Shown: positions 1-24,305 of the stretch, piece by piece | Position numbering within the stretch: position 1 is the first letter of the stretch | Layout: the number at the start of each line of letters is the position of its first letter | From: Candidatus Saccharimonadota bacterium | GTDB lineage: Bacteria; Patescibacteriota; Gracilibacteria; BD1-5; UBA2023 | Direction of reading: 5' to 3' | DNA length: 32,000 nt | Assembly (NCBI GenBank): GCA_042852035.1 | Contig: BAAFHK010000003.1 | Coordinates: forward strand, 1-32,000 | Position numbers and translations under genes: made by a program | The notes under the pieces: generated by a model | What the model was told of the DNA's origin: nothing | What the model saw: the letters and a program-made list of their open reading frames with translations, nothing else | The model's database searches: none

Positions 1-403
1 GGTATTTTACAGTTGCTGCATTGAGTCCACTCGTTGCATCTGAAGCTGAGAGAGTGATGGAGATATTCGCATTTCTCCAAGCAGCAGAAGTATTATTTGC
101 GGAGATAACTGGGCTTGTTTTATCGAGCTTATATTGGTTACTGTTCCATGTCTGACTGTTTCAGGCATTGTCTGTTGCACAGAGATAGAGAGTATGTTGT
201 CCTTCTGTTGAGAGAGTTATAACATTTCCGTTTGCAAAGACCGTTCCTCATCATACACAGTCTGCATTATCCCAACGGTATTTTACAGTTGCTGCATTGA
301 GTCCACTCGTTGCATCTGAAGCTGAGAGAGTGATGGAGATATTCGCATTTCTCCAAGCAGCAGAAGTATTATTTGCGGAGATAACTGGGCTTGTTTTATC
401 GAG
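1..403 (-). repeat. 276-bp-period direct repeat inside the surface-protein CDS, with perfect 127-nt copies at 1..127 and 277..403
   Basis: Positions 1..127 and 277..403 are identical base for base (ggtattttacagttgctgcattgag...gggcttgttttatcgag). The offset of 276 nt equals 92 codons. The remaining ~149 nt of each unit are clearly diverged, and a third, more diverged copy lies near 555..650. Confidence 0.9.
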
Positions 404-1596: not shown

Positions 1597-1756
1597 TTCA
1601 CTCTATCCTCCTTCTGCAATTGAAAAATGCATAGCACTCTTTGATGGCTATGATATTTCATTCCATGAAGAATCACAGACTCTTGAGATGCCTGACGATA
1701 ATCAACTCATTTTAGAGTTTTTTAATCATGCACTTCATCTTACCCTCGAAAAATAG
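1568..1756 (+). CDS. 62-aa conserved small protein of the Hxs-like module (copy 1)
   Basis: The ATG at 1568 lies inside the 3' end of the previous CDS (+1 frame, 29-nt overlap), and the stop is TAG 1754..1756. The product is MQKKHLKIDSSLYPPSAIEKCIALFDGYDISF...LILEFFNHALHLTLEK. A paralog at 20767..20961 has the same MQKK start, the same 29-nt overlap and a similar size. Confidence 0.5.
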   Translation: MQKKHLKIDSSLYPPSAIEKCIALFDGYDISFHEESQTLEMPDDNQLILEFFNHALHLTLEK

Positions 1757-1760
1757 CATC

Positions 1761-3221: not shown

Positions 3222-3235
3222 TTACTCCCTACTAT

Positions 3236-3601
3236 ATGAAGAAAAAAATCCCACAACTCAAGAAAAAGCTTCATGGATTCATTACGAATGAAGACTGATC
3301 TATTCGACGTGAATCTATGGTGAAACTCTCCGTATGATGAGCTATGCTCCTCTGATGAGCTTCTGCTCTTCCTGATTCAGCAAATGCAGGACATTCAAAT
3401 GGGTATATTTCCTGCGCTCCAACTGGAAACACTCCAGCGATTAATGCAAGTATTGGTGTAAATACCTCCATAAATCTCAATGGTCACTTTAATGGAGTTT
3501 GATCATCCACACATGCCAATTACGGACACTGAAATTATAGTACCGCATGTTGGCAAAACATTCATGGATCTCACGGAAGCTGTGGATGATGATGTTGGTA
3601 A
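3236..3601 (+). CDS. precursor peptide A1 (HxsA-like; His/Asn/Gly/Ser-rich core with Cys-rich C-terminus)
   Basis: ATG 3236 is 14 nt after the hxsB-like stop, and the stop is TAA 3599..3601. 121 aa with 9 in-frame TGA by my count. Leader: MKKKIPQLKKKLHGFITNEDGSIRRESMVKLSVGGAMLLGGASALPDSANA. Core: GHSNGYISCAPTGNTPAINASIGVNTSINLNGHFNGVGSSTHANYGHGNYSTACWQNIHGSHGSCGGGCW. The leader and core motifs (VNTS, NGH[FY]N, GHGN) recur in 15444..15944. Confidence 0.6.
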
Positions 3602-3619
3602 TTGTTTTTCACTCTTTTT

Positions 3620-4585
3620 ATGAATCGATACCTCGCTCTTTTTCTATTTTTCGTTTCTCCGATAATCCTTCTCTCTTCATGTACATGAATTGGATTTAAA
3701 AGTGGGAAAGTAAGTTGGAGTGATGCTCAGAATTCCAGTACTACCTATTCTTCGAAGATTGGGTGACTCTTCAAGAAAGCTCTTGATGATCCACATACAA
3801 AACAAATTGCCGAGAGAATGTATACCGATTACTCTGCTGGGATTATTACTGAGAGTTTTTTTTATACCGCGCTTACTTACCTCAACGATAAACCATCACT
3901 TCCTTCATTTCTCGAGAACTACAAAAAAAATAAGTGAGTATTTTGAGAAGAATCTTCTGATACAGCATCGGATTATATCGGTGGATACATTTTTGCTTAT
4001 GCTTGAGTAAAGACTAGTGAATGTACGGAATACACAAATGCCCTAAGTGGAACATTTGTCGGGAAAAGAATTCATGAAGGATGCATCGATTCAACCCTTT
4101 TGTATAATGTACTGGGCGAAAAAAATGAAAAAACAATTGATATATTTAAAAAATCTTGAGATTTAAAAATTAACGAAAGCCTCTTTCGTTCTATTGCAAA
4201 AGGAGAAACAAAAGACTGTTGAAGTTGCTCCGTTATTATTGAATGAGCTGACCGAGAGAAAACATTTGGCGAGATATCAAATCTTCAAAAATCAGATTTA
4301 AAAGGAAAAACTGTTAATTTTAGCTTAAAGAATTTTAATATTCTTGCACTTAAGAGCGAAATTAAGCCAAACATGTCTGATAGGGAGAAGTTTGATCTCA
4401 CATACGATAGCTTCTTACTCTATAATGCCATTTATAAATCGGATACCTCGACATGTAAGAAGCTTCTAAATGAAACACTCTCAAGTACTTGCATAAAATA
4501 TATCGAAAAGGATCGTACTCAAAAACAAGAATATACAAATTATATTGAACCATATATCATCTACAGCTACCTCTACGAACTCTAA
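3620..4585 (+). CDS. lipoprotein, function unknown
   Basis: ATG 3620. The N-terminus MNRYLALFLFFVSPIILLSSC carries a lipobox (L-S-S-C). The frame stays open, reading TGA as Gly, through to the TAA at 4583..4585 and includes track ORF 4373..4585. 321 aa. The C-terminal part contains a C-x11-C pair (CKKLLNETLSSTC). Confidence 0.6.
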
Positions 4586-5732
4586 GAAATGTCTCTACAT
4601 TCATATTCCCTTTTGTCCGACAGGATGTAAGTTCTGCCATTTCTATCTGGATGAGAAAAAATCATCCGAGAATTATATTGGTTATCTAGAGAAGGAATTT
4701 CTCTTGCGGTTTTGAGATGAAAGGGTTTTTATCGATACGATTCACATAGGTTGATGAACTCCAAATATGCTATCACAAAAAGAATTGGAGAGTCTTTTTG
4801 TTTTCATTCATAAAAGGTTTTATTGATGGAGGGAGTTTTCCATGGAGCTTCACACCGATCTCCTGACATTTCCACAGCTCGATAGCCTAAAAAATGGCTG
4901 AGTTACTCGAATCTCCTTCTGAATTCAAACATTTGATGCTGAAATACTCAAACTTCATGCACGCGTCTCTAAGAATTATGAAAAACTCTGATCCTATATC
5001 GAATATGCGAAAGAAATCGGATTTGAGAAGATAAATTTTGATCTTATTTATGACCTTATCGGGGATTCTCCTGATAAAATTCGGAAAAATATCGAATTCG
5101 TAAAACAATATCAACCAACGAGCGTGAACTATTACTGACTCAGGCTCCTTACAGACTTTCTTCGGGAAAATCATACTATGAATTACAAACGAAGACTTGC
5201 CTATTACCTTCTCATCCGAGAAGAGCTTACGAAAATCTGATACATCCAGAAAAACGATGCTATTTACCATAAACCTTGATTCGAAAATGGAAGAAACTTC
5301 TTGTATGAAGATTATGTCTACTCTAAGTCCCATACAATCTATGGTTTAGGTGTTTCAGCAACGAGTGATAATAACGAAAGATTCGCGAAGAATGTTATCT
5401 CACTTGAGAAATACAAGAACCTTCTCGACAATAATGAGTCAACACAGGATTTCCATTTTAGCCTAAGTGAGAAACCTTATCTCCTCTATAGACTTTATTA
5501 TTGGCTACTTATGTATCCTACGATGAGTTTTGCAGACTATGAAGCTGAATACTGAACTGGAACTATTCTAAAAATAAAAGAAGATATGTCGCGCCTTGAG
5601 GGTGAGGGTCTTGTAAAGATTGAAGATAGCTCTATACGATTAACCCAGAAATGACTCTTCTACTTCATGGGTCTTGAAGATATTCTTATGAAGGACTATA
5701 CTTACGAGCTCTCACTTCTAAGAAAATTATAA
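4545..5732 (+). CDS. HemN/HemW-like radical SAM enzyme (coproporphyrinogen-III-oxidase family; possible class C radical SAM methyltransferase)
   Basis: CLYIHIPFCPTGCKFCHFY from 4590; IHIG-G-G-TP with TGA TGA at 4752..4757; RISFGIQTFD; INFDLIYDLIGDS; stop TAA 5730..5732. Track ORF 5301..5555 is an internal piece. The start is uncertain: the only canonical in-frame start upstream of the cluster motif is TTG 4545, which overlaps the previous CDS by 41 nt. Confidence 0.75.
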
Positions 5733-5774: not shown

Positions 5775-6701
5775 ATGTGACCTTGAGATCTTCACATATT
5801 CTCTCTAAAAAAAGGAGCTATTATCAAAATCATTTACTGATGTAATCATAAATGTAGCTTTTGTCATGAAAAAGACAACATAGCATCGCTTGATTTTCGT
5901 TCCCTGAAGATTGAGAATCTCCAAGATATATATACATGGATACATTCAAATGGTTTTGATTATATTATACTATCTTGATGAGAGCCAACACTCCACCCTC
6001 ATTTAGTTGATTTTATAGTATTTTTTCAAGAAAAGGGCATTTATGTGGTAGTCGTCAATAATGGGACTCACCTTCATAAACACGATTTCTCAAAGGTAAA
6101 TAAAGATAAAATTACTTTTTATATATCTTATCACGGACAAAAGGAATATTACAATGATATTACAGGAAGTCATGACTTTGATATTGTAACTAAAAACATA
6201 AAAATGCTCGCTGAAAGATTTCCAGAAGTTATCCTTAGGTGTGTCCTAAATTATAAAAACCTTGAATCTATAGAAGATTTCACTCTTGAAGCTTTGAGCC
6301 TGAGCCCTTCGGTTTACCTAGAGTTTATCCTTCCTGAAGATTTGAAATATGAGCATGTAAATAAAGTCTCTATTCCTCTCAAAGAGTACCATGTTTTGGT
6401 TCTTAAATACCTCAAAAATAAACGAATACTTTTTGATGGATGAGCTGGGTGTTTCCATCCAAAGATATTCGAAATATTGGAAACACGTTTTGATCCATTA
6501 GTAAACACAATGATTGGACGAGTCAAAAAAGATAAAACTGGTCTCTTATTTAATATAAAGACTCAGGACTCTGAACATAATATCAAAAGCTTTTGGAAAA
6601 AATGCTCCCAATGCAAAAAGAAATCTTTTTGTCATTGATTTGATATTCTCTATTTGCAAAAATTTAGTAAAAATATCCCCATTGAGGATGGGAAAGTCTA
6701 A
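5775..6701 (+). CDS. radical SAM enzyme
   Basis: ATG 5775 gives MGPGDLHIFSLKKGAIIKIIYGCNHKCSFCHE (Cx3Cx2C). ILS-G-G-EPTLHP has both Gly encoded by TGA TGA. The C-terminus reads CSQCKKKSFCHG. Stop TAA 6699..6701, 308 aa. Track ORF 6045..6443 is an internal fragment in the same frame. Confidence 0.75.
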
Positions 6702-6933: not shown

Positions 6934-7992
6934 ATGATCCCCAACCTCTTTTTCGCCATCAATGAAGACTGTAATCTCGATTGTACGTACTGTAACGTCA
7001 AAAAGTCGAAACAAAAACTCTCTCTAGAAAAAATCATAGAATGAGTCCTTTATTTTATTAAGTTTTTTCCGGAAGCTACAGGATACAACATCTTTTTTAC
7101 CTGAGGAGAACCCCTTCTCTCTTTTCGGGAAATTGTATCTGCTACTTACTTTTTGAAGAAACTTGAGAAAAAAATCGGAAGAAGTTTCTCGATTCATATA
7201 CCCACGAATGGCACACTCCTCACTGATGAACGTATAGCATTTTTTGTAAAAAATAATATTACCATTTCTTTAAGTATCGATAGTCTAGATATAGCGTATT
7301 CGGAACGTCCCTTTGTGTGAAAATCCCTAGTTCCATCCCAAAGTGTTATTGCAAAAATTTTCCCGAACATAAAAAAATACGCAAATATATTTCGAATAAA
7401 AATGGTTGCAACTCCTCAGGAAGTTCCATCTATAGAGCGGACATTCTGAGAATTCTACCAACTCTGATTCCGATTTATCAATATCCAACCTGCTCATGGA
7501 GTTTATTGGTCAAAGGAAGCTCAAGACAGCTATATCGAAACTCTACTTTCCCTCAGAAAGAATCTTGAAAATTTCCCCTGACTGGAATCAACAACCCTCA
7601 AAAAATCAGGTTCACATACTCACACCATGAAACGATGTGCAAAATGAATCTCTGAAATATGCATCGATAGCTATGGGAATATTCTTACCTGTGATGCCTT
7701 TCTTGCATATAGTCCCGATATAAGAAAGTCTTTTGCATTTGATTCACTTGAAAAACCTGGATTTGATAGAGAAAAATTTCGAAAAGGTTCCGACTGGAAA
7801 TACTGTCAGAATGAAATCATTGCGCATGTTGATGGAACTATAGATTATGATCTTACCCACTGCAAAACCTGTAATGAATCGATCTCTTGTACAAAGCTCT
7901 GTAATGCTGTCCCCATAAACGGTCAAGAACTCGATAGTACTATACTTCTATCAAACTTTGAATTATTTCGTAGAATAGATTCACTTATCTAA
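6934..7992 (+). CDS. radical SAM/SPASM-domain peptide-modifying enzyme
   Basis: ATG 6934 gives MIPNLFFAINEDCNLDCTYCN. FFT-G-GEPLLS has TGA at 7102..7104. Also IPTNGTLL and ISLSIDS. The C-terminal CAKGISEICIDSYGNILTCD plus CKTCNESISCTKLC (Cx2Cx5Cx3C) is a SPASM signature. Stop TAA 7990..7992, 352 aa. Track ORF 7317..7568 is an out-of-frame shadow. Confidence 0.8.
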
Positions 7993-7993
7993 T

Positions 7994-8980
7994 ATGGATT
8001 TTGCCTATTTTCAAGTTGTACGCATCTGTAACCAAAAATGCATCTTTTGTGCTCAACCATCGAATGGAAGAATTGAGTCGCTCAAAAAAATACAAGAAAG
8101 GATTGACTGGTATAAGGACCAATGATATGAGTGAATTATCCTCAACGGCGGAGAACCAACCCTTCATAAAGAGATTGTTAACATCATTAAGTATACCGCA
8201 CAAAAGTGAATATATTCAAAAATGATATCGAATGGGATAAATTTTTCAAATGCTGAACTTGCCAAGGCTTGTGTTGATGCCTGACTCAAGCAGATTCACA
8301 TATCATTCCACAGCTATATACCAGAAGTTGAAAATAACCTCATGAGATGAGATGTTTATGAAAAGCAGCTCAAATGACTCCTCAACATGCTTCTCCATAA
8401 AAACAAGATCGATGTCTGGGTGAATATTGTTATGAACCAGTACACAATACGTCATTTAGATAAAACTGTACTTTTTTTTCTCAAACTCTGAGTGCGAAAT
8501 TTTGTTATTAATAATCTAGAAGTCACTTGAGTATATCCAGAATATTTAGAGAAATTACTGTTTCGCTTGAAAGAAGCTGAAGAGCCCCTCAAAAAGGCAC
8601 TCCATCTTATCCGAAAATATGGAAACATCGCGCGCGTCTCGCGTATCCCCATGTGCTATCTACGATGATTTGAAGACTATTCACGAGATATCGAGTATTA
8701 TATCCTCCATACAAAAAAATATATTCATTACCTGAATGATGATAAACACCCCAAGCAATCCGATTTCGTAAGCGATGAAGTAAGTTGGCAAAGTGGTGAA
8801 GGATCGCCTACTTGAATGAGACGTTCTCGAACCGAAAATTGTAGTCATTGTGATCTTCGTCATATGTGCTCCTGATATGATCTGCTTGATTTTTTCCCAG
8901 GTGAAGACCCTCTTATTCGACAGAAAGTTGATAATGAAGAAATGCAGACTATACTGAACAACATCTTATGAAAAAAATAG
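7994..8980 (+). CDS. radical SAM enzyme, possibly HxsC-like (tandem paralog 1)
   Basis: ATG 7994 is one nt after the previous stop. Motifs: VRICNQKCIFCAQPSNG; ILNGGEPTLH; ISFHSY; C-terminal ENCSHCDLRHMCSG. Stop TAG 8978..8980, 328 aa. The CxxxCxFCAQP context recalls the CxxxCxMCSQPP of HxsC (from memory, unverified). Confidence 0.7.
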
Positions 8981-9924
8981 CATACCTTCAACTTCATAGA
9001 ATCTGCGATCAAGAGTGCGTTTTTTGTGCCCAACCCTCGAATGGATCAGTACTCGATTTCAAAGCCATAAAGAAACAAATAGATGCTTTTGTTCAAGATG
9101 GTTACTCAAAGGTTATTTTTTCTTGAGGAGAACCAAGTCTCAATAAAGATTTTTTTGAAGTTATTGCGTACGGTAAAAGTCTCGGCATCGAAATGACCAT
9201 TCTCTCAAATGGTCATCGATTTTCGGAGTATGATTTCGCAAAAAAATCCGTCGAATCATGACTTCTACAGTACCATATATCCCTCCATTCACATATATCA
9301 GATATACACGACGCCTTAGTAAAAAAACCATGATCCCTGAAACGATGTTTTCAAGCGCTTCATCATCTACTATCACTCTCTGCGCACATCACAATAAATA
9401 TAACGATTAATGCTTATAATGTATCCTATTTTGATAGGCTTATTAAAGCTATCCTCAAAGAATTCCCTTCTATTCATGGATTTATTATCAATAACCTTGA
9501 AACCTCTCAGATTCCTCGAGAGCATTATAGTGTTATAGCAAAACTTTCGGAGATAAAAAAAACCATTCCGAATACCCTTCAAATTTTAGAAAATTCTGGT
9601 AAAAAATTCCGTATAGAAAGGGTTCCTTTCTGCTATATTCGATGATACGAGCATCATTCTACCGATCTTGAGTACGTCATCGACGGGGAAGAAAAATTTC
9701 TTCACTATCTCTGAGAGTCAAGAGCGTCTCACAAGGTAAAAAAAGAAAACTACGTTCATAACTCCAAATATGGCGAATCATGCTCAGCATGTGATCTAAA
9801 ATGACTCTGTGCTGGTCAGGAAGGTCTCAATATCCACTACTTTCCCGAAGAGCTTATTCCACAGACCGTAAGTGAAGCTGAGAAAAAACAAATTATTCAA
9901 AAATTCTATGAATGTTATTGTTAA
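8968..9924 (+). CDS. radical SAM enzyme, possibly HxsC-like (tandem paralog 2)
   Basis: ATG 8968 overlaps the previous CDS by 13 nt. Motifs: HRICDQECVFCAQPSNG; IFS-G-GEPSL (first Gly is TGA); ISLHSH; ERVPFCYIRGYE (compare RIPMCYLRGFE in the paralog); SCSACDLKGLCAG. Stop TAA 9922..9924, 318 aa. Confidence 0.7.
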
Positions 9925-11434
9925 CATCTCATGAGATACCTGAACGAATACACCTCCAAAAATTGCAAGACTTCTGGAGCTTTGAGAGACCTTCCCTATT
10001 CCGAAAAGTATTTATTTCCCTCTCTCTTATATTTCGGACATGGATGATATTCTTCATGCGTACGAAACACTCATTCATGAAGAGAAATATATCGTGCGTT
10101 CAGCGGATAAAACTGAAGATGGAGATCATAAAAGTTATGCCGGAGTATATCTAACAAAAACAAATAAGTATTCCAAGAAGAACCTGAGAAATGATATTCT
10201 TTCAGTAGCTCTGGGACTGTCAGAAGGAGGCTTTATACTTATCCAAGAATATATTGAGGCAGATTTTTCATGAATATACTTTGGAAACATTGGTTATGAG
10301 AGGAGTTGAATTGAGTATATTGCTGGATGAAATGAATTATTAACAAACTGAAGTGAAGTTGGATCAAGTATAATCTTCGATAAAAATGGGAAGCAAATCG
10401 TAAGTGAGGTTCAATATCAAGATTCGATACTTAAAAACTCTCTTCAAAAAGAGGACTTTTGTTCTTATGCAAATATTCGCATGAGTGAAAGAGAAGCGAT
10501 AAAAGATACCCTCTTCAATCTAAAAACCACTTCCTGAAATAATATAGATGTGGAATGGGCTATAAAAAATGGTCGAGTGTACATACTCCAAATTCGTTCA
10601 ATCACAAAACCTCTCGCTTTACCTCAGGATAGAGTAGACAAAAATAACCTCATAAAACCCTTTCGAGAAATTCTCGGGAAATGCGCTTTCATGCAGATAT
10701 TTTTTCGGGAACTATGATTTGAATCTTCGAGTATTATCTATGATATGGGATGAGGACTTCTCTATTGTGGAGTCTTTGGGAACAATGCCCAACAAGAACA
10801 ATTAGTCCAGATTATCAATTCAGACAAGCTCTACATCCTCTTAGATCGTGAAGATCCTCAATATGAGAAAATATTTCAAGAAAATGAGCGAAATGAACTC
10901 CGGTTCAAAGACCAGCGACTCGAAAGTTTGTTTGAAAAATATAGAAAAGATACTGGCATAGCAATCTTTCTCGCACGACTTCGAGTACATTCTGACCTGA
11001 GTCTCTTTTGTGACTTTAGGTATCCTTGACTTTTTTTTCTCAAACAGGAAAAAACTTTTTCAAGTTTACTCGAAGAAAAAAATAAAAGCGAATGAACTCT
11101 CTCTCTAGGACTAGGAGATGAGATTCCTTTTTCGTCATCACATAACCTTGAATCTCTCGAGGAGAGAGAATTGAGTGTAACAAAAAATATACAAGTCACA
11201 TGATTCGAGAATTCTGTATTCGTTGGATTTGATATACGCGACTATAAAGTTCATCCAAATATAAAACTTCTCCTTTTGGAACGATCAAGTCATCTTTCAC
11301 ATGGTGCGATACTCGCCCGAGAAATTGGTATACCCTGCATATATGGAGTAAAATGAATTACATCTCATCTCAAATTATGACAGAGACTGGTAATTGACAA
11401 AATTAATTATAATATTAAAATATGTAAATACTAA
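9908..11434 (+). CDS. PEP-utilising-enzyme-like phosphotransferase (PPDK_N ATP-grasp domain + swivel phosphohistidine domain, no TIM-barrel domain)
   Basis: ATG 9908 overlaps the previous CDS by 17 nt. The N-terminus is MNVIVNISGDTGTNTPPKIARLLELGETFPIPK (GGK..L..G.P-type). IVRSADKTEDGDHKSYAGVYLT and DVEWAIKNGRVYILQIRSIT match PEP synthase / PPDK / rifampin-phosphotransferase ATP-grasp motifs. The C-terminal LLERSSHLSHGAILAREIGIPCIYGV is the mobile His domain. I translated codon by codon from 10262 to TAA 11432..11434 and found no TAA or TAG. 508 aa. Confidence 0.7.
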
Positions 11435-11449
11435 CTTAGTAATTGGGGT

Positions 11450-13090
11450 ATGAATCAACTATCAAGAAAATACACTCTCAGTGAAGAGATTTGAGAGTTT
11501 GATACATGAAAGAACCTCAAATGAGCTCCTTCTACAAGATTTCAGGTAGCCGCCCTTCTCGATGAATCTCAACAACGAATGAATGGGCATGCAACTCAAG
11601 AGATTTTAGACATGACTCCTCCAACTGTGCTCATCGCTGAATATGCCAGAGCAAAGTGAGTACTCAAGATTCAACATAATGGAAGGATTATTGAAATTCC
11701 CGGAGGAGAAATATGAGGTGATGAAATAGTTTATTTGAGTCAAAAAGCAATAGAAGTATCACCATGAATAAATGAATGGCTTCGTGAAAATCCAGACTGT
11801 ATAAGAATTGAGTGAGAGTATCTCGTAGCGATTCACTTACCTGAAGGAGGAAAACGGTGAGGATTCTTTGATATTGTTATGAAAGAATTTTCTTCTACAG
11901 CAACCTCTCCACTGAAGCACGACATCGTTGAGCTCCATCTATGAGCCTGAGACTCAAAATTTTCCACCGTTATGGAGTGAGTCACTCCAAGTATGTTAGG
12001 AAAAATGCTGCGAAGAAAATTTAACATCGGAAATAATCCTAACTGGCAAAGCGAGCGAACACGAGAAAATCATGAGCGTCATTATGAGAAACTTCTTTGA
12101 ATCCCCGGAATAAAACCTCCTCAAATCTATCTCACTCTTTCAGGAAAATCAGCTAATACTGCGGTAATTCGTGATGTTTCAAAGAGTACCCCACCAAACA
12201 CCCTAACTGTATATCCTGGTTATTTTTTTCTGAATGAACCCGATTTCCCAGAGGGTACAAAAAATACGATTCATGATACCACTCAGTGATTTTTTGCATC
12301 TGTAGAATCTTGATATGCAGGAATCCAAAAGGAAGAGTATGATGCATGACTTTTAGAAGCGGTGAGAAAAATGATTAATCTCGCCTCAAGAAACACAGGA
12401 ACTTCATATTCTATATCTCTTGATGTCACTTCTGATATTCTGTCTTTCCAAAAAAGTGAACTCTGACAACTCATTCAAAAAGCCCTTAAACTGCAAAATC
12501 TTCGGGTTATTATTACGAGCAGTCTGACGAAATATAATCGAAATGAACCGAACTATCATTTTGGAATTATTGCTGATTTTTCATGAGAAGACCCCCTCTC
12601 TCTTGATGTCCTTGTAGAAACATCATATGGCTGACTCTCACCACTTTGAATCCTCCAATACCCTCGTCTTAAGAAAAATGAACTTGAGTGACTCAAATCC
12701 CAATCACAAAAATCCTGAGAGGCTTTTCTCTCATGATTCAAGCAGGCTGTATGAGATATATGAAATGGGATTATAGAGATTGAATCTTATACCCCCTATA
12801 GCTATATTCGATTCCCGTGACTCCCCGAAGATAAACGAAATAGACTCGTAAGTGAATTTCTCAAAGAGAGAGCTATACGCCCCTATGTAGGAAGTTCATT
12901 TTACCTCGAAGACTTCCGGATATGCGATGTCCCCGATGTGAATTGTTCACGTTTCTGAACAAGTAGTGATCGTAGCTTTCGTAATAATATTCGAGTGAGT
13001 TTCCCAACTTGAGATAAAGACGCGGCAAAAATGGGATTACTGGTGGGAGAAAAAATCAGAAATCTACTACAAGAAGCCACTTTTTCATAG
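11450..13090 (+). CDS. PLP-dependent-enzyme-like protein (fold type I, Cys/Met-metabolism-like motifs)
   Basis: ATG 11450, TAG 13088..13090, 546 aa, open only with TGA = Gly. Motifs: LTLSGKSANTAVI; RVIITSSLTKYNRNEPNYHFGII (S-x-T-K lysine motif); C-terminal NNIRVSFPTGDKD (compare RLSVGLED). The functional call is motif-level only. Confidence 0.5.
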
Positions 13091-13145: not shown

Positions 13146-15392
13146 ATGCCAAATCTTATTATTCGGGAAGAGGAATTCTCTTGAGTTCCTTCGACGATTA
13201 GTTTCCCCCAACTCGTTCTAATACTCAGTTTTCTCAAGAAAAGATGAGAGAATCAGATTCGAATCTGCTGAGTCCATCCACTCAAACATCCAGAAGTAAA
13301 GAAGATTGTTGAAGTAATTCGGCGAGGAGGATTCGATTCAACCTTTGTTCTTTCATCCGAAGAAATAAAACAATGCATATTTCCTGAGAATATCACTCAG
13401 GCTGAGATTATTGTTCACGATATCAACTCCCTTCGTGCTGAGGATATAAAAATCATTAAAAATACGACCGAAAATATCCTTCTTGAATTCGAAGTTCCAG
13501 CAGAAAAAGATACCTATAAAAAAATTATTAATTTCTGTGAAAGTACAGAAATTCGAGATATTCGATACCGAGTACATCATCCTGAATTTTGAGAGAAAGA
13601 GATTTCTACACTTCCAGAAGAAAGGATAAACTCTCTATTTGAACATATTGTTACTTATAAAAATTCCTTCAACATTTCCCTGAATTGTGGAATCAGTAGA
13701 GACTTATTTTCTTCATCCCAAAAAGAAAAATTGTCTCAAATTTCATACTTTTGGAATGAAGGATGCTCTGGGTATGTTTGAAGGTATGATATCTATCCAA
13801 ATGGCGAAATAAAAAAATGTAAGCCCCTTAAAAAACTCTATGGGATTGATGGACTCAGACTCGAAAATTTTGATTCTGAAAATGATCTCTTCTTGGCTAT
13901 TGATATTGAGGAAAGTACTTCAGGTTGCATTACAGAAAAGCCCTATCCAACAAAAGACGAAATGCCGTTCGATAATTATCCATGATTTTATGAAGAAGAT
14001 AATCGAAAAAATCGTCACGTCCTACGAACGACCAAGGAACTTATAGAAAAAAAGAATACCGTCGTTCTTCCACCAGAACTTGTTCGAGGAAAGTCTGTTC
14101 TTGATCTTGGATCTTGTATATGAGCGATGTGACAGTGGGCACTCTTTTATGGGGCCAAGTCATATACCTGAGTAGAAATTCAAGAATCGTATGCAAAAAC
14201 ATCCAGAAAACTCCTCGCTCACCACGGTGACAAAGTAAGAATCATACAAAGCAGTCTCGAGAAATTTCTTTCAACGAATACAGAAAAATTTGATATCGTA
14301 CTTTGTCTCTGAGTGATTTATGTTGCGATTGACTACTATTCGATACTGAGAAAAATCTCTGAAATATGTAACGATTTTACGGTTATCGAGTCATTCTACC
14401 CAGATAACAGACTCCTCGACACTAATGTACCATGAGTACTCTTTGTAAATGACCATGGGATTAATCTTTCGACTCATAATGCTTCTCTCATGTGAAGATG
14501 AAGTCATATTAGTCCAAGTGGCCTTGATTTTCTCATGTCATGACTCTGAATGACTTCAGAGTGAGACATCCTACAACCAATGAAGATCTATCAGTGAATC
14601 GATTCCTATAGAATCCGATGAGTATGAAGGTACATGAAACGTTATCATCAAGGGAAACAAAAAAGTCTCCCTTCTCTTTCTGAGAAACTCGAACATGGGA
14701 TTATTGATAGAATCAAGCCTTGGGAAATGATGCAAAACTGACTCGAACCTAAAGAAGTAAGTGGACCATGGGAATTTGGCAATAAAATTGCGCATAATTT
14801 TTTCGATCACGCAAAGAATCATATCCCAAATTATGAAAAAACCATAGATCTCTGCCTACAGATTGTCCAAAAATACCTCCCAAATAGAAGTTCAAGAATT
14901 CTTGAATTTTGAAGCGCAATTTGATATACCCTTGAGAAATTTGAAAGGGCAGGATACAGAAATATTCTTTGAATCGAAAAGTCAGAGTCGATGTATAACC
15001 AAAGTACAATGAAAGAACATGTACGAGTACGAGATACCTTAATAGATGAAGATGGTCTATTTTCTGCTATTTTAGCGAATTGGACACTTCATTTTATCGA
15101 GGAACGTGAACCTATCATACAATCATTTTACAATCATCTTGAAGTAGGATGAATCCTTATAATTACAGATAAGGTGTCCTCGTCTGGACTCTCACACGAA
15201 CTGTATATGGATTTTAAACGATCTAATTGACTTTCAGAAGATGAGATTCAAACAAAAACAAAGTCTCTTAAAGGAGTGCTCTTCCCATTCGATATTACTT
15301 GGTATTTTACTACCCTGAAGAAAATAGGATTCTCAAGCATCGATATCATCACGGCAAGTCCATCTTTTGTAACATTTCTCATACAGAAATAG
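13146..15392 (+). CDS. three-domain fusion: radical-SAM/SPASM-like domain lacking Cx3Cx2C + CmoB-like methyltransferase domain + CmoA-like (carboxy-SAM synthase family) domain
   Basis: ATG 13146, TAG 15390..15392, 748 aa in one frame. The N-terminal ~290 aa has radical-SAM-like strands (IRICGVHPLKHPEV..) and a twitch/SPASM-like NEGCSGYVGRYDIYPNGEIKKC, but no CxxxCxxC. The middle domain reads KSVLDLGSCI-G-AM-G (TGA at 14121 and 14130), ...FDIVLCLGVIYVA, compare CmoB TILDVGCGSGYH...FDTVFSMGVLYH. The C-terminal domain reads PWEFGNKIAHNFFDHAKNHIPNYEK...RILEF-G-SAI-G-YTL...NWTLHFIEE...GGILIITDK...[22 protein letters not shown], compare E. coli CmoA [24 protein letters not shown]...VYDLGCSLGAATL...NFTLQFLEP...GGALVLSEK...[22 protein letters not shown]. 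Confidence 0.65.
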
Positions 15393-15443: not shown

Positions 15444-15944
15444 ATGGAAAAAAAAGGAATCATCCCAAAGTTCAAAAAGAAACTTACCGCCTTCCTTACT
15501 GAAGAAGCCGGAAGTATTCGTAGAGAAGATATCCTCACCATCGGTGCGGCTACTCTTCTCGTAGCATGAGGACTTTCAGATCAGGCAAATGCCTATCTCA
15601 CTCTTGGTGACTGTCATACTAACCATAATAATTTCGTAAGTACATCAGATGGTTATACTCATTCGAGTGGATGGGTCCATTCAAACACGACTCCTGCGCC
15701 TCTCTGTATGCATGAGAACTACACAACCCCATCTGCCTGAGGACATGGAAATGCAGTAGCGGTAAATACCTCAACTGCCTGATCTGATAATAAAATCGTA
15801 AACTGACACTATAATCAGATTCCAAGCGCTGGAGCATCACACGTAAATCGTTGACATGCGAACGTAAACCCAGTATACTATGTTGCTCACAATGACGGAT
15901 ACGTTTATCATAGCAGTCATGCGAATCATTCGGATGGTGGTTAA
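15444..15944 (+). CDS. precursor peptide A2 (HxsA-like His-Xaa-Ser-rich peptide)
   Basis: ATG 15444, TAA 15942..15944, 166 aa with 5 in-frame TGA. Leader: MEKKGIIPKFKKKLTAFLTEEAGSIRREDILTIGAATLLVAGGLSDQANA, homologous to the A1 leader. The core has 13 His, including GYTHSSGWVHSNT and YVYHSSHANHSDGG (His-Ser-Ser / His-Xaa-Ser), and shares the GGHGNAVAVNTST and NGHYN motifs with A1. Confidence 0.65.
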
Positions 15945-17011: not shown

Positions 17012-18109
17012 ATGTCCACTATTCAAAGTTTCCCATACACTATTTGATACAACGATAACAAGGTATTAAATATTTATATAGAAAAATATAAGCAAATTCT
17101 CCACCATCTCGCCCAGAAGCACCTCGATAAAGACATCGCAGCTACTCCTGATATTCTCCAATTTTTATCAATTGGAGATATAGCATCAAACCTTTTATTA
17201 CTCGGGAAGCCTGAACCATGAAATGGCGCTGAGTATGCGAAGAAATTCTTAGAGAAAGAATGGGCGGAGTTTAAAATCGGTGGACTCCAAAATCTTTCGT
17301 CTGTCAAGTGATCAAAGATCCCAGGAACAAATATCCTTCTTACCAACAACGATTATACCCCAGGAGGCGTCGCGAGGATTAATCATCCAAGCCAAAAGGA
17401 TGGAGCTCAACTTACGGGATTTTCTTCGATTGAAGAAAAAGAGTGGCTTAACCTCTATGCTCAGGTTTTTGAAAAAATCCGTGAGATACATCCATGATTT
17501 TATACCGAATTAACAAGCGTCCTACAAAAAGTTGTCCCAATAGGAATATCTCGTGACTGTCATAACTCTGGATCATTCTCGGACTGTATCGGACACATAT
17601 ATATGAGCTACCCGATAGGGAATATTGAACCAGTGATTGCCGTACTTGAGGCAGTTATCCACGAGTACAATCATAATAAACTTCATATTATTATGATGTC
17701 TGATCCATTGATTCTCAACAGTGGTGAAGAAATATACTACTCTCCGTATAGGCCCGATGCGAGACACCTATATGGTATTTATGCGTGACTTCATGCTCTA
17801 TCCGCCGTTTTATATGTTATCTTTACTTGAATTCAAGAAGGCACTCTCACTTCACCAAGTAAGGACCTAATTCTGAAGTCGCTCCTCTACTTCATGAAAG
17901 ATGAGGCGTCAGTTCGGGTCCTAGAAAAATATGGGAAATTCTCCCCTCTCGGACAAGAGCTCCTCAATGAAATGAAAGCGGTACATAAGCATACCCTGGG
18001 AATTATAAAAGAGCTCCGATACGGTCATGAACTCTTAGAAGCTGCTTCTCGAGAATGCAGAAATCACTTCCTTGAAGCACAAAAAAATAACAAAAAAATC
18101 CTATACTAA
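17012..18109 (+). CDS. HExxH-motif domain protein (family of peptide-modifying, aKG-HExxH-type hydroxylase-like proteins)
   Basis: ATG 17012, TAA 18107..18109, 365 aa. The track fragments at 17280, 17603 and 17894 are mostly pieces of this gene or shadows of it. The core reads PVIAVLEAVIHEYNHNKLHIIMMSDPLILNSGEEIYYSPYRPDARHLYGIYAGLHALSAV. That is the HExxH..L...(~20)..SP.R.D.R...G pattern of the HEXXH motif domain found beside radical SAM/SPASM maturases (from memory). Confidence 0.65.
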
Positions 18110-19305
18110 AAGAAGAGCTTATCGAAAAGAGTGTAAGAATTATCAAGAAAAGCATACCACATATGTAGTGCTATATATGCTAAATTCTGCTGCATAACTA
18201 TCGTATAGAGAAATGCCATAAAAATAATATGTGCATATGGGTGATTATTATATACAATCATATACGTAGTAGTCTCATCCCTTCAGCACTTTTGAGCAAG
18301 TGCCTTTAGGAACCTTAAAGCATGTGAATCAACTGTCTTAGAGAAAACACTCTGAACTTCTTCTACCATACTATATCTCTCCTTTTCTTCGAAATCTGGT
18401 GCAAAAGTACCGATAATATGCTCTACATCAAGATTATCTCAAATCTTGATGTTTTTTATTGTTCTCGGAATTAAGTCATAACGACGAATAAATTTGGAGA
18501 ATAGATAAAGAAATCATGAAATGAGAGCCATAGTAGGAAGAGAATACTTTCCAAAGAAAAACAAATCGTAGATAAACCTATCAACTGACCGATAGTACAC
18601 AAAAAGGATAAGTATGACCGTTAGAGCTAGGATTAAGGTATAATTTACTCATTTTATTGCTGCTTTGCGAATATTCTTATTTATCAGTCGAAAAATACTC
18701 ACCACTGCAATGATCAGAGCTGGATAGAGAGGGCTTTTGGGGTCGCCTATAGAATAAAAATAGTTCACGAGTTTCTCACTGAACATCTGCAATAGACTGA
18801 ATGATAAAACAATAACGAGACTATATTGGATAATATTTAGTATCCATTCCTTTGTTGTTTTTTTCTTTACTTCATTTTTTGTATTCTTTTCCATTTTACT
18901 CGGATCGATTGCGTCTATAAATCTTGATTGGATAAGAGAAATAAGACATAAAATAACAATTGTGAAAACTGCAATATTTCCAGCAAAAGAAATATAACGT
19001 CCATCAAAAAGAAACATGGAGAGAACAATCGTATACTTTGCATCCCCTGCAGCCCATCAATTATAAAGATAGAGAAGAAATGAAACAACGAACGTAAACA
19101 AAATTGAAGTAAGGTAAAATCCCCACTGAAATCCACTAATAAAACCCAACTTTAGAGAAAGAGTGAGTAATATGGGCAACAAAAACAAGAGTGATAATAA
19201 AATGTAGTTTGGTATTACTTTAAACTTCCAATCTTTATAAACAAGAAAGAGGTTTAGAAAAAAGAATAAAGCCAGGAAAAACCAAAATGTAATCGAAAGG
19301 ATCAT
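18106..19305 (-). CDS. A24-family (prepilin-peptidase/CpaA-type) aspartic membrane protease with ~180-aa C-terminal extension
   Basis: The ATG at 19305 is 5 nt after the hxsB-like stop; an alternative TTG at 19320 would overlap it. Track pieces 19057..19320 and 18649..19017 share one frame and are joined by TGA. Motifs are VYKDWKFKVIPN (first Asp motif, D....IPN) and GWAAGDAKY (second Asp motif, G.GD.K). Reading TGA 18649..18651 as Gly extends the frame a further 181 codons without TAA or TAG to TAG 18106..18108, adding more TM segments and a soluble tail. My base indexing near 18650 and 18720 disagreed with the track by 1 nt, so I followed the track frame. Confidence 0.55.
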
Positions 19306-19310
19306 ACGAA

Positions 19311-20759
19311 TTAAAACCAAGAGCGAAATACTTTTTCGTTCTCTGGATCTTGTAATTTTTCAAAAATATAATCAAGCATAATTATCTGCATCTTATTTTT
19401 CTCATCTTTTGAAAAGTTCGAGAATATGGTCCCATACTGGGTGAAATTATAGAGTATATCTACTCCTATATAAGGTTTATAAACATGGTCATTATAACCT
19501 GGAAGACCATCAATAACCGATGATTCAAGAGCAGCTCGAGTTACGGTGCTTTGAGCCATAGCCTTCATAGTTTGATCCCCTGTTGCAAGCATTGGCGTAA
19601 GTAAGAAGTCTTCGATACCCATCCTTCCAAGCATACGAGCCTCATCACCAGCATAGACCTTTCCATCATAATTATAGGCAACTCATCCAACTGCAACTCA
19701 TGATGGAGAACGAATATCCATGAAGTTCCCATCGGCATTAAAGAATATCTTTGAGAGGTACACACTCGTTATCATTTCTCTTAATTTATAGCCCGATTTA
19801 TTAATCTCAATGACATAATCAAGTCATTTCTGGAAAAAATCAAGAAATTCAGTTGGGGTAAACTCCATACGTTCTCGTTCGACGGTAGCAAATCCATACG
19901 GATTAAGCCATCGAAATCAGATACTTCGCAGCCCAAGACTCACATACGTATCGATTATTTCTTTATATTGCTTAATACTCGTTTTCGTCCAGGTAGCAAG
20001 AGCTCCTATACTAAATGATTCTGGTGCTCCTCTGTATTTTATTTCCTCATTTATTCGTTTTATCCAGTAAGACACTGTATCGAAACTATCTCATTCTTTC
20101 CAAACTCTTTGTGCATTATGAACAAGCTTATCTCCGTCAAGAGACGTACATATCTCCACCTTATGATCCAAAAGCCATTTGAGTTTTTCTTCACTCATAA
20201 GCGTCAGATTCGATACGATACTCAGGAAAAGCTGTTTCGAAAGAGACTCTGCCTTTTGCCTAGCGTATTCAGTAATAAATTGCACCACCTCCCAATTGAC
20301 GAGAGATTCTCATCACTGAAACTCGATGGTTATACTTGGAGAGGAGCTAAAAAAAATGGTATCTACAACATTCTTTGCTGTCTCAAGAGTCATATCTAGT
20401 CATTTCGCTGTCATAGGTGCAACTGCAGCGTGGCAATATTCGCATTTATGATTGCAACGCAATGTTGTAACAATCATATGAAGCGTAGGACCATAGTAGA
20501 GAAATTTATTCTTTTCGAGGTACAGAGCAGCTAACTTTTCTTCATAGTCAGGAGTCTTATAGAAAAGTTTTTCTGTAAGTTCATCTTTTTTAGGTCAAGT
20601 AAGCTCCCCGGAGATAAATTTTTCAAAATCTCAAGAGGTGAGAAAAGAATATTTTCCGATATCATTCGTGATAAGTATATCTCAAGATTTCATTTTTTTA
20701 TAGCGAAAAAATGCTATCTCTTGGGAAAGATTCTCAATAGTTTTCAAAGTAAGACTCAT
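19311..20759 (-). CDS. hxsB: HxsB-like radical SAM peptide maturase (copy 2)
   Basis: ATG 20759, stop TAA at 19311..19313, 482 aa. It contains track pieces 19311..19634 and 20091..20288. Motifs: LRCNHKCEYCHAAVAPMTAK; IEFQGGESLVNWEVV; CTSLDGDKLVHN; WLNPYGFA; AYNYDGKVYAGDEARMLGRMG; GLPGYNDHVYKPYIG. It is collinear with 1761..3221 throughout but diverged at synonymous sites. Confidence 0.8.
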
Positions 20760-20766
20760 ATATTCC

Positions 20767-20961
20767 TTAGATTAATTTTTCATTATAAAGTGCGACACAG
20801 TAATTTGAAAATTCATCAAACAGTCATTGTGGATCCTCATCCTGAATTGAAATTCCATCTTGAATAGATTGAATATCAAAAGACTCAAATTCAGAGATTG
20901 CTTCTTCCAGAAGGGCTTGAGGATAGAAATTTTTATCGAGATTGAAATTTTTCTTTTGCAT
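20767..20961 (-). CDS. 64-aa conserved small protein of the Hxs-like module (copy 2)
   Basis: ATG 20961 lies inside the end of the HxsD-like CDS (29-nt overlap, other frame), and the stop TAA is at 20767..20769. The product MQKKNFNLDKNFYPQALLEEAISEFESFDIQS...GLFDEFSNYCVALYNEKLI is a paralog of 1568..1756. Confidence 0.5.
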
Positions 20962-21487
20962 TCTTAACTTTATTAGGATCTAACTGAGGGGTTTTCTTTG
21001 TTTGAGTTCCACTCATATCGACTTCAATTTCCTTCAAAATCCGATCTATCTCACCCTGATCAATCTTAAGCTCTGGATCATTTTCAATTTCTTTTAAGAT
21101 TTCATCAATATCCCTATCAAAGTCAATCTGTGGATTTGAATTCGAGATTTGATTTGGAACAAAATTTTGACTATCAACATACGAACCAAGAGCTCGCATA
21201 ACTATAGTTTCTCGAATCGTTTTATTATCTCTTTCAAGTTTATCACGAAGAAGGGTTGCAAGAAGTTCATCACTGTATTCAAGAGCAAACGCCTCACTAC
21301 TCCAACGTTGATTTTCTTTTGGATGAATTTGAACTAGGGTATTCTCCCCATCTCTCTTAAAAAAGAAATAGCATCGATCAAGAAACATATACGCCGCCTT
21401 CATGACGACTGCCTCTGAAAAGATTCCACCATCAATAAGAAGCTCTAGACGATTATTTTCCTGATTTTTTGAAAGAAAAGCAAACAT
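20933..21487 (-). CDS. HxsD-like protein (copy 2)
   Basis: This is an intact 184-aa ORF in the track with no internal TGA. MFAFLSKNQENNRLELLIDGGIFSEAVVMKAAYMFLDRCYFFF...WSSEAFALEYSDELLATLLRDKLERDNKTIRETIVMRAL. It is a paralog of 1096..1596. Confidence 0.65.
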   Translation of the reverse strand: MFAFLSKNQENNRLELLIDGGIFSEAVVMKAAYMFLDRCYFFFKRDGENTLVQIHPKENQRWSSEAFALEYSDELLATLLRDKLERDNKTIRETIVMRALGSYVDSQNFVPNQISNSNPQIDFDRDIDEILKEIENDPELKIDQGEIDRILKEIEVDMSGTQTKKTPQLDPNKVKNAKEKFQSR

Positions 21488-23783: not shown

Positions 23784-24305
23784 ATGACAAAATTATTCTG
23801 AGTAAATAAAGTAAAAGCTCAGGCACCTTCTGAAACTCACCAAATCAGACATGTGAGCCATGATGATAATAATCATGGGAATCATCACCATCATCATGAA
23901 GATCATGATGATGTAGAAGAAAAGTATGAGGAAATCGATGAAATACACGATCATCATGATGAGGAACATAATGTAGACCTCGGCCAAATAGCTGTAGATG
24001 TTTTAGATCTTACAGATGAAATTATTATTGTAGCTCCAATTGCTTGAGTTGACCCAAGCGATATCGATATTGGTCTTTCACGAAATATTCTCACTCTTTC
24101 ATGAGAACGAAAAACTCCAAGCATCTATATGGACGCTAAAAGGATGCTCGTCGAAGAGTGTTTCTTTTGAGCATTTTCTCGATCAATAATTCTCCCAGAA
24201 AATTTGGCTTTTAATAAAATTCGTGCTACCGTAGAAGAAAATGTAATTATGGTACATGTGCCAAAACTTTCATTTTTTTCAAAGACTATTAAAGTTGAAA
24301 AATAG
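23784..24305 (+). CDS. Hsp20/alpha-crystallin small heat-shock protein with His-rich N-terminal region
   Basis: It shares the frame of track ORF 23853..24047. Upstream ATG at 23784, stop TAG 24303..24305. The alpha-crystallin core reads IAVDVLDLTDEIIIVAPIAGVDPSDIDIGLSRNILTLSGERK...EECFFGAFSRSIILPENLAFNKIRATVEENVIMVHVPK. The N-terminus reads HDDNNHGNHHHHHEDHDD...DHHDEEH. The start is uncertain. Confidence 0.75.

Follow-up and report, generated by a model that had tools for sequence, protein, structure and literature searches.

A three-domain protein with pseudo-radical-SAM, methyltransferase and CmoA-like domains in an expanded His-Xaa-Ser cluster of the Gracilibacteria: a candidate carboxymethylating peptide-tailoring enzyme

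A gene is described here from a 32,000-nucleotide stretch of DNA of a member of the Gracilibacteria, a lineage within the candidate phyla radiation (CPR) (positions 1 to 32,000 of contig BAAFHK010000003.1, assembly GCA_042852035.1; hereafter the window). The predicted 748-aa product combines three domains: an N-terminal domain resembling the radical S-adenosylmethionine (SAM) enzymes of the SPASM/twitch type, a middle class I methyltransferase domain and a C-terminal domain related to CmoA, the carboxy-SAM (Cx-SAM) synthase. Judged by family matches, the gene sits in a His-Xaa-Ser (Hxs) peptide-maturation cluster that is expanded to about 18 genes and about 20 kb (window 1096-21487). We propose that the protein could be a trifunctional tailoring enzyme of this cluster, with Cx-SAM made by the C-terminal domain and its carboxymethyl group transferred by the middle domain to an HxsA3-like peptide; from the sequences and the analogies set out below, we put the probability of this at about one half.

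Results

Reading frame and genetic code

With genetic code 11, the region 13146-15392 yields short open reading frame (ORF) fragments only, and its direct translation shows 25 internal stops. All 25 are TGA, there is no in-frame TAA, and the frame closes at a single TAG. In seven homologues that use code 11, glycine occupies 84 of the 138 aligned cells at the TGA positions and tryptophan none of them; at 11 of these positions nearly all seven have glycine, and the glycines of motif I in the two methyltransferase domains are among them. As the internal stops are all TGA and align with glycine in the standard-code relatives, the alignments indicate that the window uses genetic code 25 (TGA = Gly), and the reading of TGA as tryptophan (code 4) was rejected, as no Trp was found at these columns. 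All the other genes in the window (1-32000) likewise need TGA = Gly; code 11 yields only 7 ORFs of at least 120 aa. No tRNA gene was found in the window 1-32000.

A preliminary description of this DNA, made from the sequence without database searches, had raised the possibility that the long ORF is really separate genes split by a missed stop. This was rejected, as each internal stop is a TGA aligned with glycine. In addition, the methyltransferase and CmoA-like domains share a single uninterrupted ORF in the standard-code relatives, and all three domains are present in three more proteins from Gracilibacteria (P0002-P0004, 43-57% identity); the ORF is one gene. One of the three, P0003, is encoded at locus L004, in another Gracilibacterium. 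Locus L013 encodes a three-domain protein of 769 aa (45% identical), the same length as P0004, and it may be P0004.

The 748-aa product is identical to an entry in NCBI, 'MAG: hypothetical protein HHAS10_09770 [Candidatus Altimarinota bacterium]', and all the peptide strings quoted in the preliminary description are present in the translation. Public databases hold P0002-P0004 translated with TGA = Trp, an artefact which places spurious tryptophans at glycine positions.

The C-terminal CmoA-like domain

The best NCBIfam match of the C-terminal domain (~215 aa) is the CmoA model TIGR00740 (E 2.8e-18, model positions 13-230 of 239), and three CmoA entries are its top PDB sequence matches. When a profile of eight family members was used, the CmoA structures 1IM8 and 4GEK were matched with E-values of 7e-29 and 2e-28, with phosphoethanolamine N-methyltransferase as the next family at 8e-12. 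As the CmoA structures are so far ahead of the next family, the homology is specific and extends over the lid; by sequence, the C-terminal domain is a genuine, full-length homologue of CmoA, including the alpha6-alpha7 lid helices and the SAM-binding residues. The striking CmoA likeness claimed in the preliminary description is therefore upheld.

The ligand contacts of E. coli CmoA were given by Byrne et al., who also described how the lid shuts the active site off from macromolecules (PMC3663124). Across 122 family members Y39, D/E62, G64, D/E89, N132, F137, D/E164, K165, K185 and K198 are conserved, and the lid is the best-conserved segment of the domain. The PDB entry 8K5L ('tRNA (cmo5U34)-methyltransferase') was considered as a closer solved relative and rejected, being more distant and without the family motifs; no paper on it was found.

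The middle methyltransferase domain

The middle domain (~240 aa), a SAM-binding class I methyltransferase, carries the family motif F-x3-D-x-R-x2-R, the motif I LDLGSCxGAxGxW, and the residues Y392 and R495. In Pfam, both methyltransferase domains of the protein matched generic class I methyltransferase models only. With CmoB models the middle domain scored below threshold (PF08003, 15.3 bits against 23.8; PRK15068, 25.3 bits against 209), and the NCBIfam CmoB models scored it no better than those of UbiG or BchM. One relative, P0044, passes the PF08003 threshold at 37.5 bits.

The AlphaFold2 model of the domain (predicted local distance difference test, pLDDT, 80.7) has the Vibrio CmoB structure 7ct8_B as its top Foldseek match (3.4e-11), and many of the top 50 matches are CmoB entries; UbiG, NmbA and XrdM come within 5-fold of CmoB, and all TM-scores are 0.5-0.6. 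When a 90-sequence family alignment was compared by hhalign with three CmoB sequences only, the match reached 97.6% (E 3.6e-12) over CmoB residues 91-323, up to the C-terminus. In this alignment, CmoB Y200 corresponds to Y392 (Tyr in 57 of the 90 members), CmoB R315 to R495 (Arg or Lys in 88), and the arginine of the CmoB 'TEWRSD' stretch to the invariant R287. Therefore, it is plausible from sequence and model that the middle domain is a remote relative of CmoB, with a relationship that is not discriminating. The fusion runs transferase then synthase, which is the reverse of the E. coli gene order (cmoA then cmoB), as had been pointed out in the preliminary description.

In PADLOC, the sole match of the protein was to mad2 of the MADS defence system (74 bits, aa 311-408). 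It falls in two stretches on the methyltransferase cores and appears to be generic.

The N-terminal pseudo-radical-SAM domain

No CX3CX2C motif is present in the N-terminal domain: there are 0 Cys in residues 1-40 and no in-frame upstream extension, and the homologues of the three-domain protein likewise start with MPN(L/I). A weak match was obtained to TIGR04150, a pseudo-radical-SAM family, and a PDB sequence search with this domain gave no meaningful match. The AlphaFold2 model (pLDDT 72.7; good to about residue 200, poor beyond) shows beta/alpha repeats, and its best fold matches in the PDB by Foldseek are SuiB (3.6e-6, TMq 0.58), BlsE (1e-5, 0.63) and PqqE (5.8e-5, 0.59), all of which are SPASM/twitch radical-SAM enzymes. 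Alignment by hhalign to an HxsC-like radical-SAM enzyme of the cluster was faint and in register, placing residue 9 just after the expected position of CX3CX2C. A twitch-like hairpin is also present. As modelled, the domain is a radical-SAM/SPASM-like fold without the radical-SAM cluster motif, and catalytically dead; it probably serves as a peptide-docking or partner-binding module. Among the family members, it is confined to proteins from Gracilibacteria.

The scaffold without Cx3Cx2C had been recognised in the preliminary description. Its term 'cluster-less' fits the radical-SAM cluster only, as C210, C236, C254 and C291 are invariant in all four homologues, for which reason an auxiliary-cluster site may survive in the domain. 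The seven-Cys motif of SPASM domains (CX9-15GX4C ... CX2CX5CX3C ... C) is not present in full, as there is no CX2CX5CX3C; the surviving part is the first hairpin (C236-x17-C254), plus C210 and C291.

The His-Xaa-Ser gene cluster

The features of the cluster are listed in Table 1. Both HxsB proteins score above the cutoff of 370 bits (446.7 and 447.2 bits), and one of the two HxsD proteins is above its cutoff of 50 (65.2 bits), the other below (47 bits). The HxsC-like radical-SAM enzymes (83-104 bits, cutoff 268) and the HxsA3 domain in the two precursors (41.7 and 23.6 bits, cutoff 65) are below their cutoffs; the precursors have leader/signal-like N-termini. The location of the three-domain gene directly upstream of precursor A2, given in the preliminary description, was confirmed.

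Table 1. Positions of the three-domain gene, its domains and the other genes of the cluster in the window.
Feature	Position	Strand	Basis
HxsD	1096-1596	+	family match
HxsB	1728-3221	+	family match
HxsA3-like precursor A1	3212-3601	+	family match
Putative lipoprotein	3602-4585	+	
HemN-like radical-SAM enzyme	4545-5732	+	family match
Radical-SAM enzyme	5775-6701	+	family match
PapB-like radical-SAM/SPASM enzyme	6934-7992	+	family match
HxsC-like radical-SAM enzyme, first of two	7994-8980	+	family match
HxsC-like radical-SAM enzyme, second of two	8968-9924	+	family match
Phosphoenolpyruvate (PEP)-utilising / PPDK_N / PigC-like ATP-dependent enzyme	9872..11434	+	family match
546-aa protein without family match, directly upstream of the three-domain gene	11450..13090	+	
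Three-domain gene, whole ORF (748 aa)	13146..15392	+	translated with genetic code 25
Pseudo-radical-SAM/SPASM(twitch)-like domain (aa 1-~270)	13146..13955	+	TIGR04150, AlphaFold2, Foldseek, hhalign, Cys conservation
Class I methyltransferase domain 'N-MT' (aa ~272-512)	13959..14681	+	Pfam, AlphaFold2, Foldseek, hhalign
CmoA-like domain (aa ~534-748)	14745..15389	+	NCBIfam, PDB sequence and family-profile matches
HxsA3-like precursor/effector A2 (166 aa), presumed substrate	15444..15944	+	NF038309 41.7 bits, cutoff 65
Alpha-ketoglutarate (aKG)-HExxH-type peptide beta-hydroxylase	17012..18109	+	TIGR04267 62.1 bits, cutoff 40
Peptidase_A24-like (prepilin-peptidase-like) membrane protein	18106-19320	-	
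Second HxsB	19311-20759	-	
Second HxsD	20933-21487	-	

Between A2 and the beta-hydroxylase, the cluster also encodes an uncharacterised protein. The L004 locus is syntenic with the window over about 20 genes; there, the position of the three-domain gene between the maturases and the precursor is kept, and A2 has a 67% identical orthologue at the same position. In L013, the three-domain gene adjoins ftsZ on a short contig.

For the 546-aa protein, no Pfam, NCBIfam or PDB sequence match was obtained. Its homologues were found only at L004 (8313-9917) and L028 (2160-3836), in both cases directly upstream of CmoA-like genes, which in L028 is a stand-alone one. A stretch of the protein, 'SSLTKY', presumably resembles the pyridoxal phosphate (PLP)-lysine motif of Cys/Met-metabolism enzymes.

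Two further genes in the window lie outside the cluster. At 2-931 (- strand), a secreted protein with near-identical ~90-aa repeats (…SPVISANNTSAAWRNANISITLSASDATSGLNAATVKY…) runs off the window end. At 23784-24305 (+ strand), there is an Hsp20-family small heat-shock protein with a strongly His/Asp/Glu-rich N-terminal extension (…HGNHHHHHEDHDD…HDHHDEEH…), which is conserved in L004.

The wider family of methyltransferase and CmoA-like proteins

By an exhaustive profile search, 290 representative proteins or clusters were found at E<1e-30. About 60 of these have two domains and a length of 450-520 aa. Many others are CmoA-like proteins (205-230 aa) or partner methyltransferases (250-280 aa) that stand alone, and there are giant fusions with a C-terminal cupin. 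Four environmental proteins of 1056-1812 aa (P0066, P0071, P0073 and P0078) have the methyltransferase/CmoA-like pair fused to long N-terminal regions, with the C-terminal cupin in the first three and none detected by Pfam in P0078; their source organisms could be eukaryotic. No paper describing this family was found in the literature search.

Forty loci from species-representative genomes were compared. The pair was fused in about 20 of them and encoded by adjacent genes in eight, with a CmoA-like gene alone in about 14; where the two were paired (about 30 loci), the order was always methyltransferase then CmoA-like. Among Proteobacteria, the hosts include Thiocapsa (with the isolate T. marina 5811), Parabeggiatoa, Thiolinea and Alphaproteobacteria, so that sulfur-oxidising Gammaproteobacteria are represented. 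The others include Bdellovibrionales and at least five CPR lineages, namely Saccharibacteria, Peribacteria, Parcubacteria, Adlerbacteria and Gracilibacteria. In T. marina 5811, a cultured isolate, the CmoA-like domain is in a called ORF of 382 aa (L044 9533-10678). The N-terminal ~165 aa of this ORF do not match the partner methyltransferase and may only reflect the first-start-codon rule of ORF calling.

When the neighbours of the 40 loci were clustered, a metal-site cupin was found in 13 loci, PP-loop 'SGGIDS' proteins in 9 and an Asn_synthase protein (70.5 bits) directly downstream in 7; in one relative the methyltransferase is fused to a PP-loop domain. Elsewhere there were CapK-like ligases together with a PLP decarboxylase, an ATP-grasp enzyme accompanied by an FkbO-like chorismatase (the latter in L006), a PEMT-like membrane methyltransferase with an Asp/Arg hydroxylase, and acyl-carrier-like, PMT_2, B12-radical-SAM and fatty-acid (FA) desaturase genes.

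In three genomes of Bdellovibrionales, a 98-aa chorismate mutase (CM_2, 75.9 bits) is encoded 3 nt upstream of the pair on the same strand, with a DAHP synthase gene divergent from it. These loci (L010 9701-11473, L015 and L016) form an operon-like run of chorismate mutase, methyltransferase/CmoA-like fusion, an uncharacterised 240-aa protein, two PP-loop proteins, an uncharacterised 196-aa protein and an acyl-carrier-like 112-aa protein, and a cupin is encoded just downstream on the opposite strand. From this arrangement, the pathway looks self-contained and able to supply its own prephenate.

In L011 (6284-7606), the gene after a stand-alone CmoA-like one encodes a PEMT/ICMT-like membrane methyltransferase, with three fatty-acid desaturase genes and the Asp/Arg hydroxylase around them. 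This suggests that CmoA-like enzymes can work with another kind of transferase when the target is a lipid.

A locus from Candidatus Peribacteria (L029 4420-18440) contains the module, a cupin and two HxsB homologues within 14 kb, the latter being 47% and 33% identical to the second HxsB of the window. The ORF call of this module has an odd N-terminus, and a frameshift or assembly error is possible. As regards linkage to peptide clusters in relatives, a point raised in the preliminary description, the three-domain form is found in such a cluster again at L004, but the two-domain module mostly occurs in other contexts.

Discussion

If the proposed function is right, the CmoA-like domain would make carboxy-SAM by carboxylating SAM, prephenate being the donor of the CO2 and of the base, and the fused methyltransferase would take up the rare cofactor directly, the fusion helping it to capture this cofactor amid an excess of SAM. 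The carboxymethyl group would then be passed to the HxsA3-like precursor, whose gene lies just downstream. The accepting nucleophile might be the side chain of a His or Cys, or a hydroxyl that the HExxH beta-hydroxylase next to it has introduced, and the dead radical-SAM domain would dock the peptide or the Hxs maturases. Finally, the new carboxylate may be activated by an ATP-dependent enzyme, as the Asn-synthetase-like ligases appear to do in relatives. In the window, the beta-hydroxylase may create the nucleophile and the PEP-utilising/PigC-like enzyme may activate a group on the peptide.

We infer that the C-terminal domain is probably a carboxy-SAM synthase and the middle domain a carboxymethyl (or methyl) transferase. 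Chorismate mutase makes prephenate, the co-substrate of CmoA, and prephenate is suggested as co-substrate here because the chorismate mutase gene adjoins the pair in Bdellovibrionales. Together with the Asn-synthetase-like and PP-loop ligases beside the pair, this gene favours Cx-SAM chemistry over plain methylation. The combination of a CmoA-type enzyme, a second methyltransferase and a carboxylate-activating ATP-dependent enzyme recurs in the family as it does in the phage CmoA/CmoX/CmoY system, which also argues for Cx-SAM. The fixed-order pairing with a second methyltransferase likewise has its counterparts in cmoA/cmoB, tglE/tglF, mccS/mccB and cmoA/cmoX (PMC10491745, PMC12783734). An HxsA3-like protein is the likely acceptor in view of the dead radical-SAM domain and the conserved position beside the precursor, and the peptide context is conserved, since L004 is syntenic and the Peribacteria module lies beside two HxsB homologues. 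As hydroxylase partners are frequent (the cupin, the Asp/Arg hydroxylase and, in the window, the HExxH beta-hydroxylase), one may speculate that a residue is first hydroxylated and then O-carboxymethylated, by analogy with the conversion of ho5U to cmo5U.

A number of observations weigh against this proposal. The TIGR00740 score of the C-terminal domain (66.5 bits) is below the equivalog cutoff of 193.3. Arg199 of CmoA, which forms a salt bridge to the carboxylate of Cx-SAM and has been described as a hallmark of the family (PMC3663124), is Thr in the window protein; across the 122 members the position is E in 44, A in 25, K in 13, T in 12 and R in 6, and 32 of them have no basic residue at 199, 200 or 203. 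W133, H136 and Y181 are invariant in the family, and E. coli and phage CmoA both have F133, Q136 and H181 at these positions. For the middle domain, protein arginine methyltransferases (PRMTs) and ToxA/XrdM outrank CmoB in a profile-to-sequence PDB search, in which the longest aligned stretch is that with CmoB. K91 of CmoB has no counterpart in the hhalign alignment of 90 members, because most members begin 2-4 residues before the aligned Phe, and the ~90-100-aa N-terminal domain of CmoB is absent, as the alignment starts at CmoB residue 91 and the short-form proteins begin there. With regard to prephenate, a search with three seeds and a profile found no chorismate mutase in the window or in loci outside Bdellovibrionales, Gracilibacteria have limited amino-acid biosynthesis (PMC11452946), and the chorismate-pathway genes near relatives could supply the substrate instead of the cofactor.

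The loss of Arg199 was considered as a disqualifier and rejected as one, since a validated synthase shares it. SpCmoA of Synechococcus phage S-B43, which has been validated by experiment as a very active synthase of Cx-SAM (PMC12783734), has K198-E199-K200-E201-L202-R203, i.e. it is also without Arg199. In the window protein (K198-T199-K200-S201-L202-K203) a basic residue is likewise found one helical turn on, and the same shift was seen in other phage CmoA genes adjoining cytosine methylase genes. The replacement of F133/Q136/H181 by W133/H136/Y181 means that the pocket around the sulfonium substituent differs from that of CmoA. Because of these invariant residues and of the 32 members without a basic residue at 199, 200 or 203, we argue from the alignment that the CmoA-like family is a distinct subfamily of CmoA.

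In CmoB, the carboxylate of Cx-SAM is bound by the triad K91, Y200 and R315; the loss of K91 abolishes Cx-SAM use, and the K91A mutant acts as a plain methyltransferase (PMC4482062). The Cx-SAM residues that the preliminary description proposed to check are thus divided: the SAM-binding set of CmoA is present and Arg199 is not, and there are equivalents of Y200 and R315 but not of K91. Its likening of the middle domain to CmoB is plausible as a remote link (hhalign 97.6%, top Foldseek match 7ct8_B), weaker than was claimed as K91 and the CmoB N-domain are absent. Its suggestion that a peptide is carboxymethylated is favoured by the gene context in relatives but weakened by the replacement of Arg199, F133, Q136 and H181.

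These same replacements, along with the lack of K91, could be explained if both class I domains used ordinary SAM, methylating the precursor or two acceptors, with the CmoA-like fold re-purposed. Such a double methyltransferase would be consistent with the generic Pfam matches of both domains, with the wide margins by which the curated CmoA and CmoB cutoffs are missed, with the middle domain being nearest by sequence profile to PRMTs and the small-molecule N-methyltransferases ToxA/XrdM, and with the behaviour of CmoB K91A as a plain methyltransferase (PMC4482062). However, the most conserved part of the CmoA-like domain is the cofactor-burying lid, which is a poor fit to a peptide or macromolecular acceptor (PMC3663124). 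The obligate, fixed-order pairing with a second methyltransferase would also be left unexplained, as would the chorismate mutase next to the pair and the repeated presence of ligases that activate carboxylates, and we therefore consider two ordinary methyltransferases to be unlikely.

Another explanation is that the product of the CmoA-like domain is some other cofactor derived from SAM, or that it is Cx-SAM but prephenate is not the donor, and that the partner methyltransferase transfers the resulting group. The invariant W133/H136/Y181 together with the loss of Arg199 point to a pocket remodelled at the sulfonium substituent, the module occurs in many CPR lineages, and CPR bacteria are usually without amino-acid biosynthesis (PMC11452946). 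Another donor could come from the 546-aa protein, whose link to the CmoA-like gene is restricted to Gracilibacteria. However, positive evidence for another cofactor is absent, the chorismate mutase of Bdellovibrionales points to prephenate, and the validated SpCmoA likewise has no Arg199, so that we regard this explanation as improbable. A broader form of it, which we also hold to be doubtful, is that the CmoA-like family uses an as yet undescribed chemistry to make an alkyl donor from SAM, in a general group-transfer pathway that has been recruited to an HXS-type, possibly antiphage, effector. The donor may be a cofactor other than Cx-SAM, or Cx-SAM made from a non-prephenate donor in CPR bacteria without the shikimate pathway, and the pathway would comprise the CmoA-like enzyme, the partner methyltransferase, the cupin and the Asn-synthetase-like ligases.

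It is similarly improbable that the module modifies a small molecule, lipid or glycan and stands in the Hxs cluster incidentally or for another product: most family members do lie outside peptide clusters (with cupin, PP-loop/AsnB-like, acyl-carrier-like, PMT_2, B12-radical-SAM, FA-desaturase and PEMT neighbours) and the L013 gene adjoins ftsZ, but the pseudo-radical-SAM/SPASM domain occurs only in Gracilibacteria proteins and has peptide maturases as its closest folds, the position between maturases and precursor is kept in L004, and the Peribacteria module co-locates with HxsB homologues.

Peptide carboxymethylation with Cx-SAM, put forward in the preliminary description as new chemistry for ribosomally synthesised and post-translationally modified peptides, is not new in kind. 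TglE/TglF carboxymethylate a peptide thiol with Cx-SAM in 3-thiaglutamate biosynthesis, and MccS/MccB uses Cx-SAM on a peptidyl-nucleotide (PMC10491745). In the searched literature, four natural uses of Cx-SAM were found, namely for cmo5U in tRNA, for 3-thiaglutamate, for a compound resembling microcin C and for phage DNA. What appears to be new is the fused transferase-then-synthase architecture, the size, phylogenetic spread and conserved partners of the family, the fusion to a pseudo-radical-SAM domain and the recruitment into an expanded HXS cluster in CPR bacteria.

If the family does consist of Cx-SAM synthase/transferase pairs, biological carboxymethylation would be much commoner than is now thought, and the covalent fusion would be a natural means of channelling a cofactor that is rare while SAM is in large excess, a property of use for engineered bioalkylation. 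In the three-domain form, a dead radical-SAM/SPASM domain would have been reused as a substrate-recruiting module, and His-Xaa-Ser systems would exist in a greatly elaborated form in CPR bacteria.

Comparison with known systems

Compared with CmoA (E. coli P76290, PDB 4GEK/1IM8; SpCmoA), the C-terminal domain shows full-length homology, including the lid, the SAM-binding residues and K185/K198, and as in the CmoA systems the synthase is paired with a transferase gene. It shares with SpCmoA the lack of Arg199 and a basic residue at 203. It differs in having W133/H136/Y181 for F133/Q136/H181 and a score of 66.5 bits against a cutoff of 193, and in being fused behind the transferase, whereas E. 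coli has cmoA and then cmoB. The middle domain has in common with CmoB (PF08003, PDB 4QNU/7CT8) the class I fold, residues that align with Y200 and R315, the top Foldseek match and a CmoA-type partner. However, it is without the ~90-aa N-domain and K91, its D-x-R-x2-R motif is particular to its own family, and its presumed acceptor is a peptide, in contrast to the tRNA modified by CmoB.

The canonical HXS system (HxsD-HxsB-HxsC-HxsA) is a four-gene antiphage defence system whose periplasmic effector is matured by HxsB/HxsC (PMC13128918). No methyltransferase belongs to it, and 99.7% of the known examples are in Pseudomonadota (PMC13128918); no description of a CPR version was found in the searched literature. 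The window resembles it in having two HxsB, HxsD, HxsC-like radical-SAM enzymes and HxsA3-like precursors. On top of these come the three-domain protein, a PEP-utilising enzyme, a hydroxylase and extra radical-SAM enzymes (five when the two HxsC-like ones are counted), making about 18 genes in a CPR bacterium, against four genes in the canonical system.

The closest precedents in chemistry are TglE/TglF and MccS/MccB-CTD, where, as proposed here, a Cx-SAM synthase and a carboxymethyltransferase act on a ribosomal peptide-derived substrate within a biosynthetic cluster (PMC10491745). As described, TglE and TglF are separate proteins with high identity to CmoA and CmoB, and the transferase of MccB is unrelated to CmoB; neither system has a pseudo-radical-SAM domain.

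In the phage CmoA/CmoX/CmoY system, the CmoA synthase acts with a methyltransferase that has been re-purposed, and the new carboxylate is elaborated by an ATP-dependent amide ligase of the Asn-synthetase-like kind (PMC12783734). The validated cassette of phage S-B43 has the order CmoA, the Asn-synthetase-like CmoY, CmoX. Its acceptor is the C5 of DNA cytosine and its transferase is a C5-methyltransferase, unlike the pair described here, and there is no detectable sequence similarity between SpCmoY and the neighbour ligases of the family loci, so that the parallel is one of Pfam family alone. At that level, the conserved neighbours of the family follow the same logic of synthase, transferase and ligase as the phage cassette.

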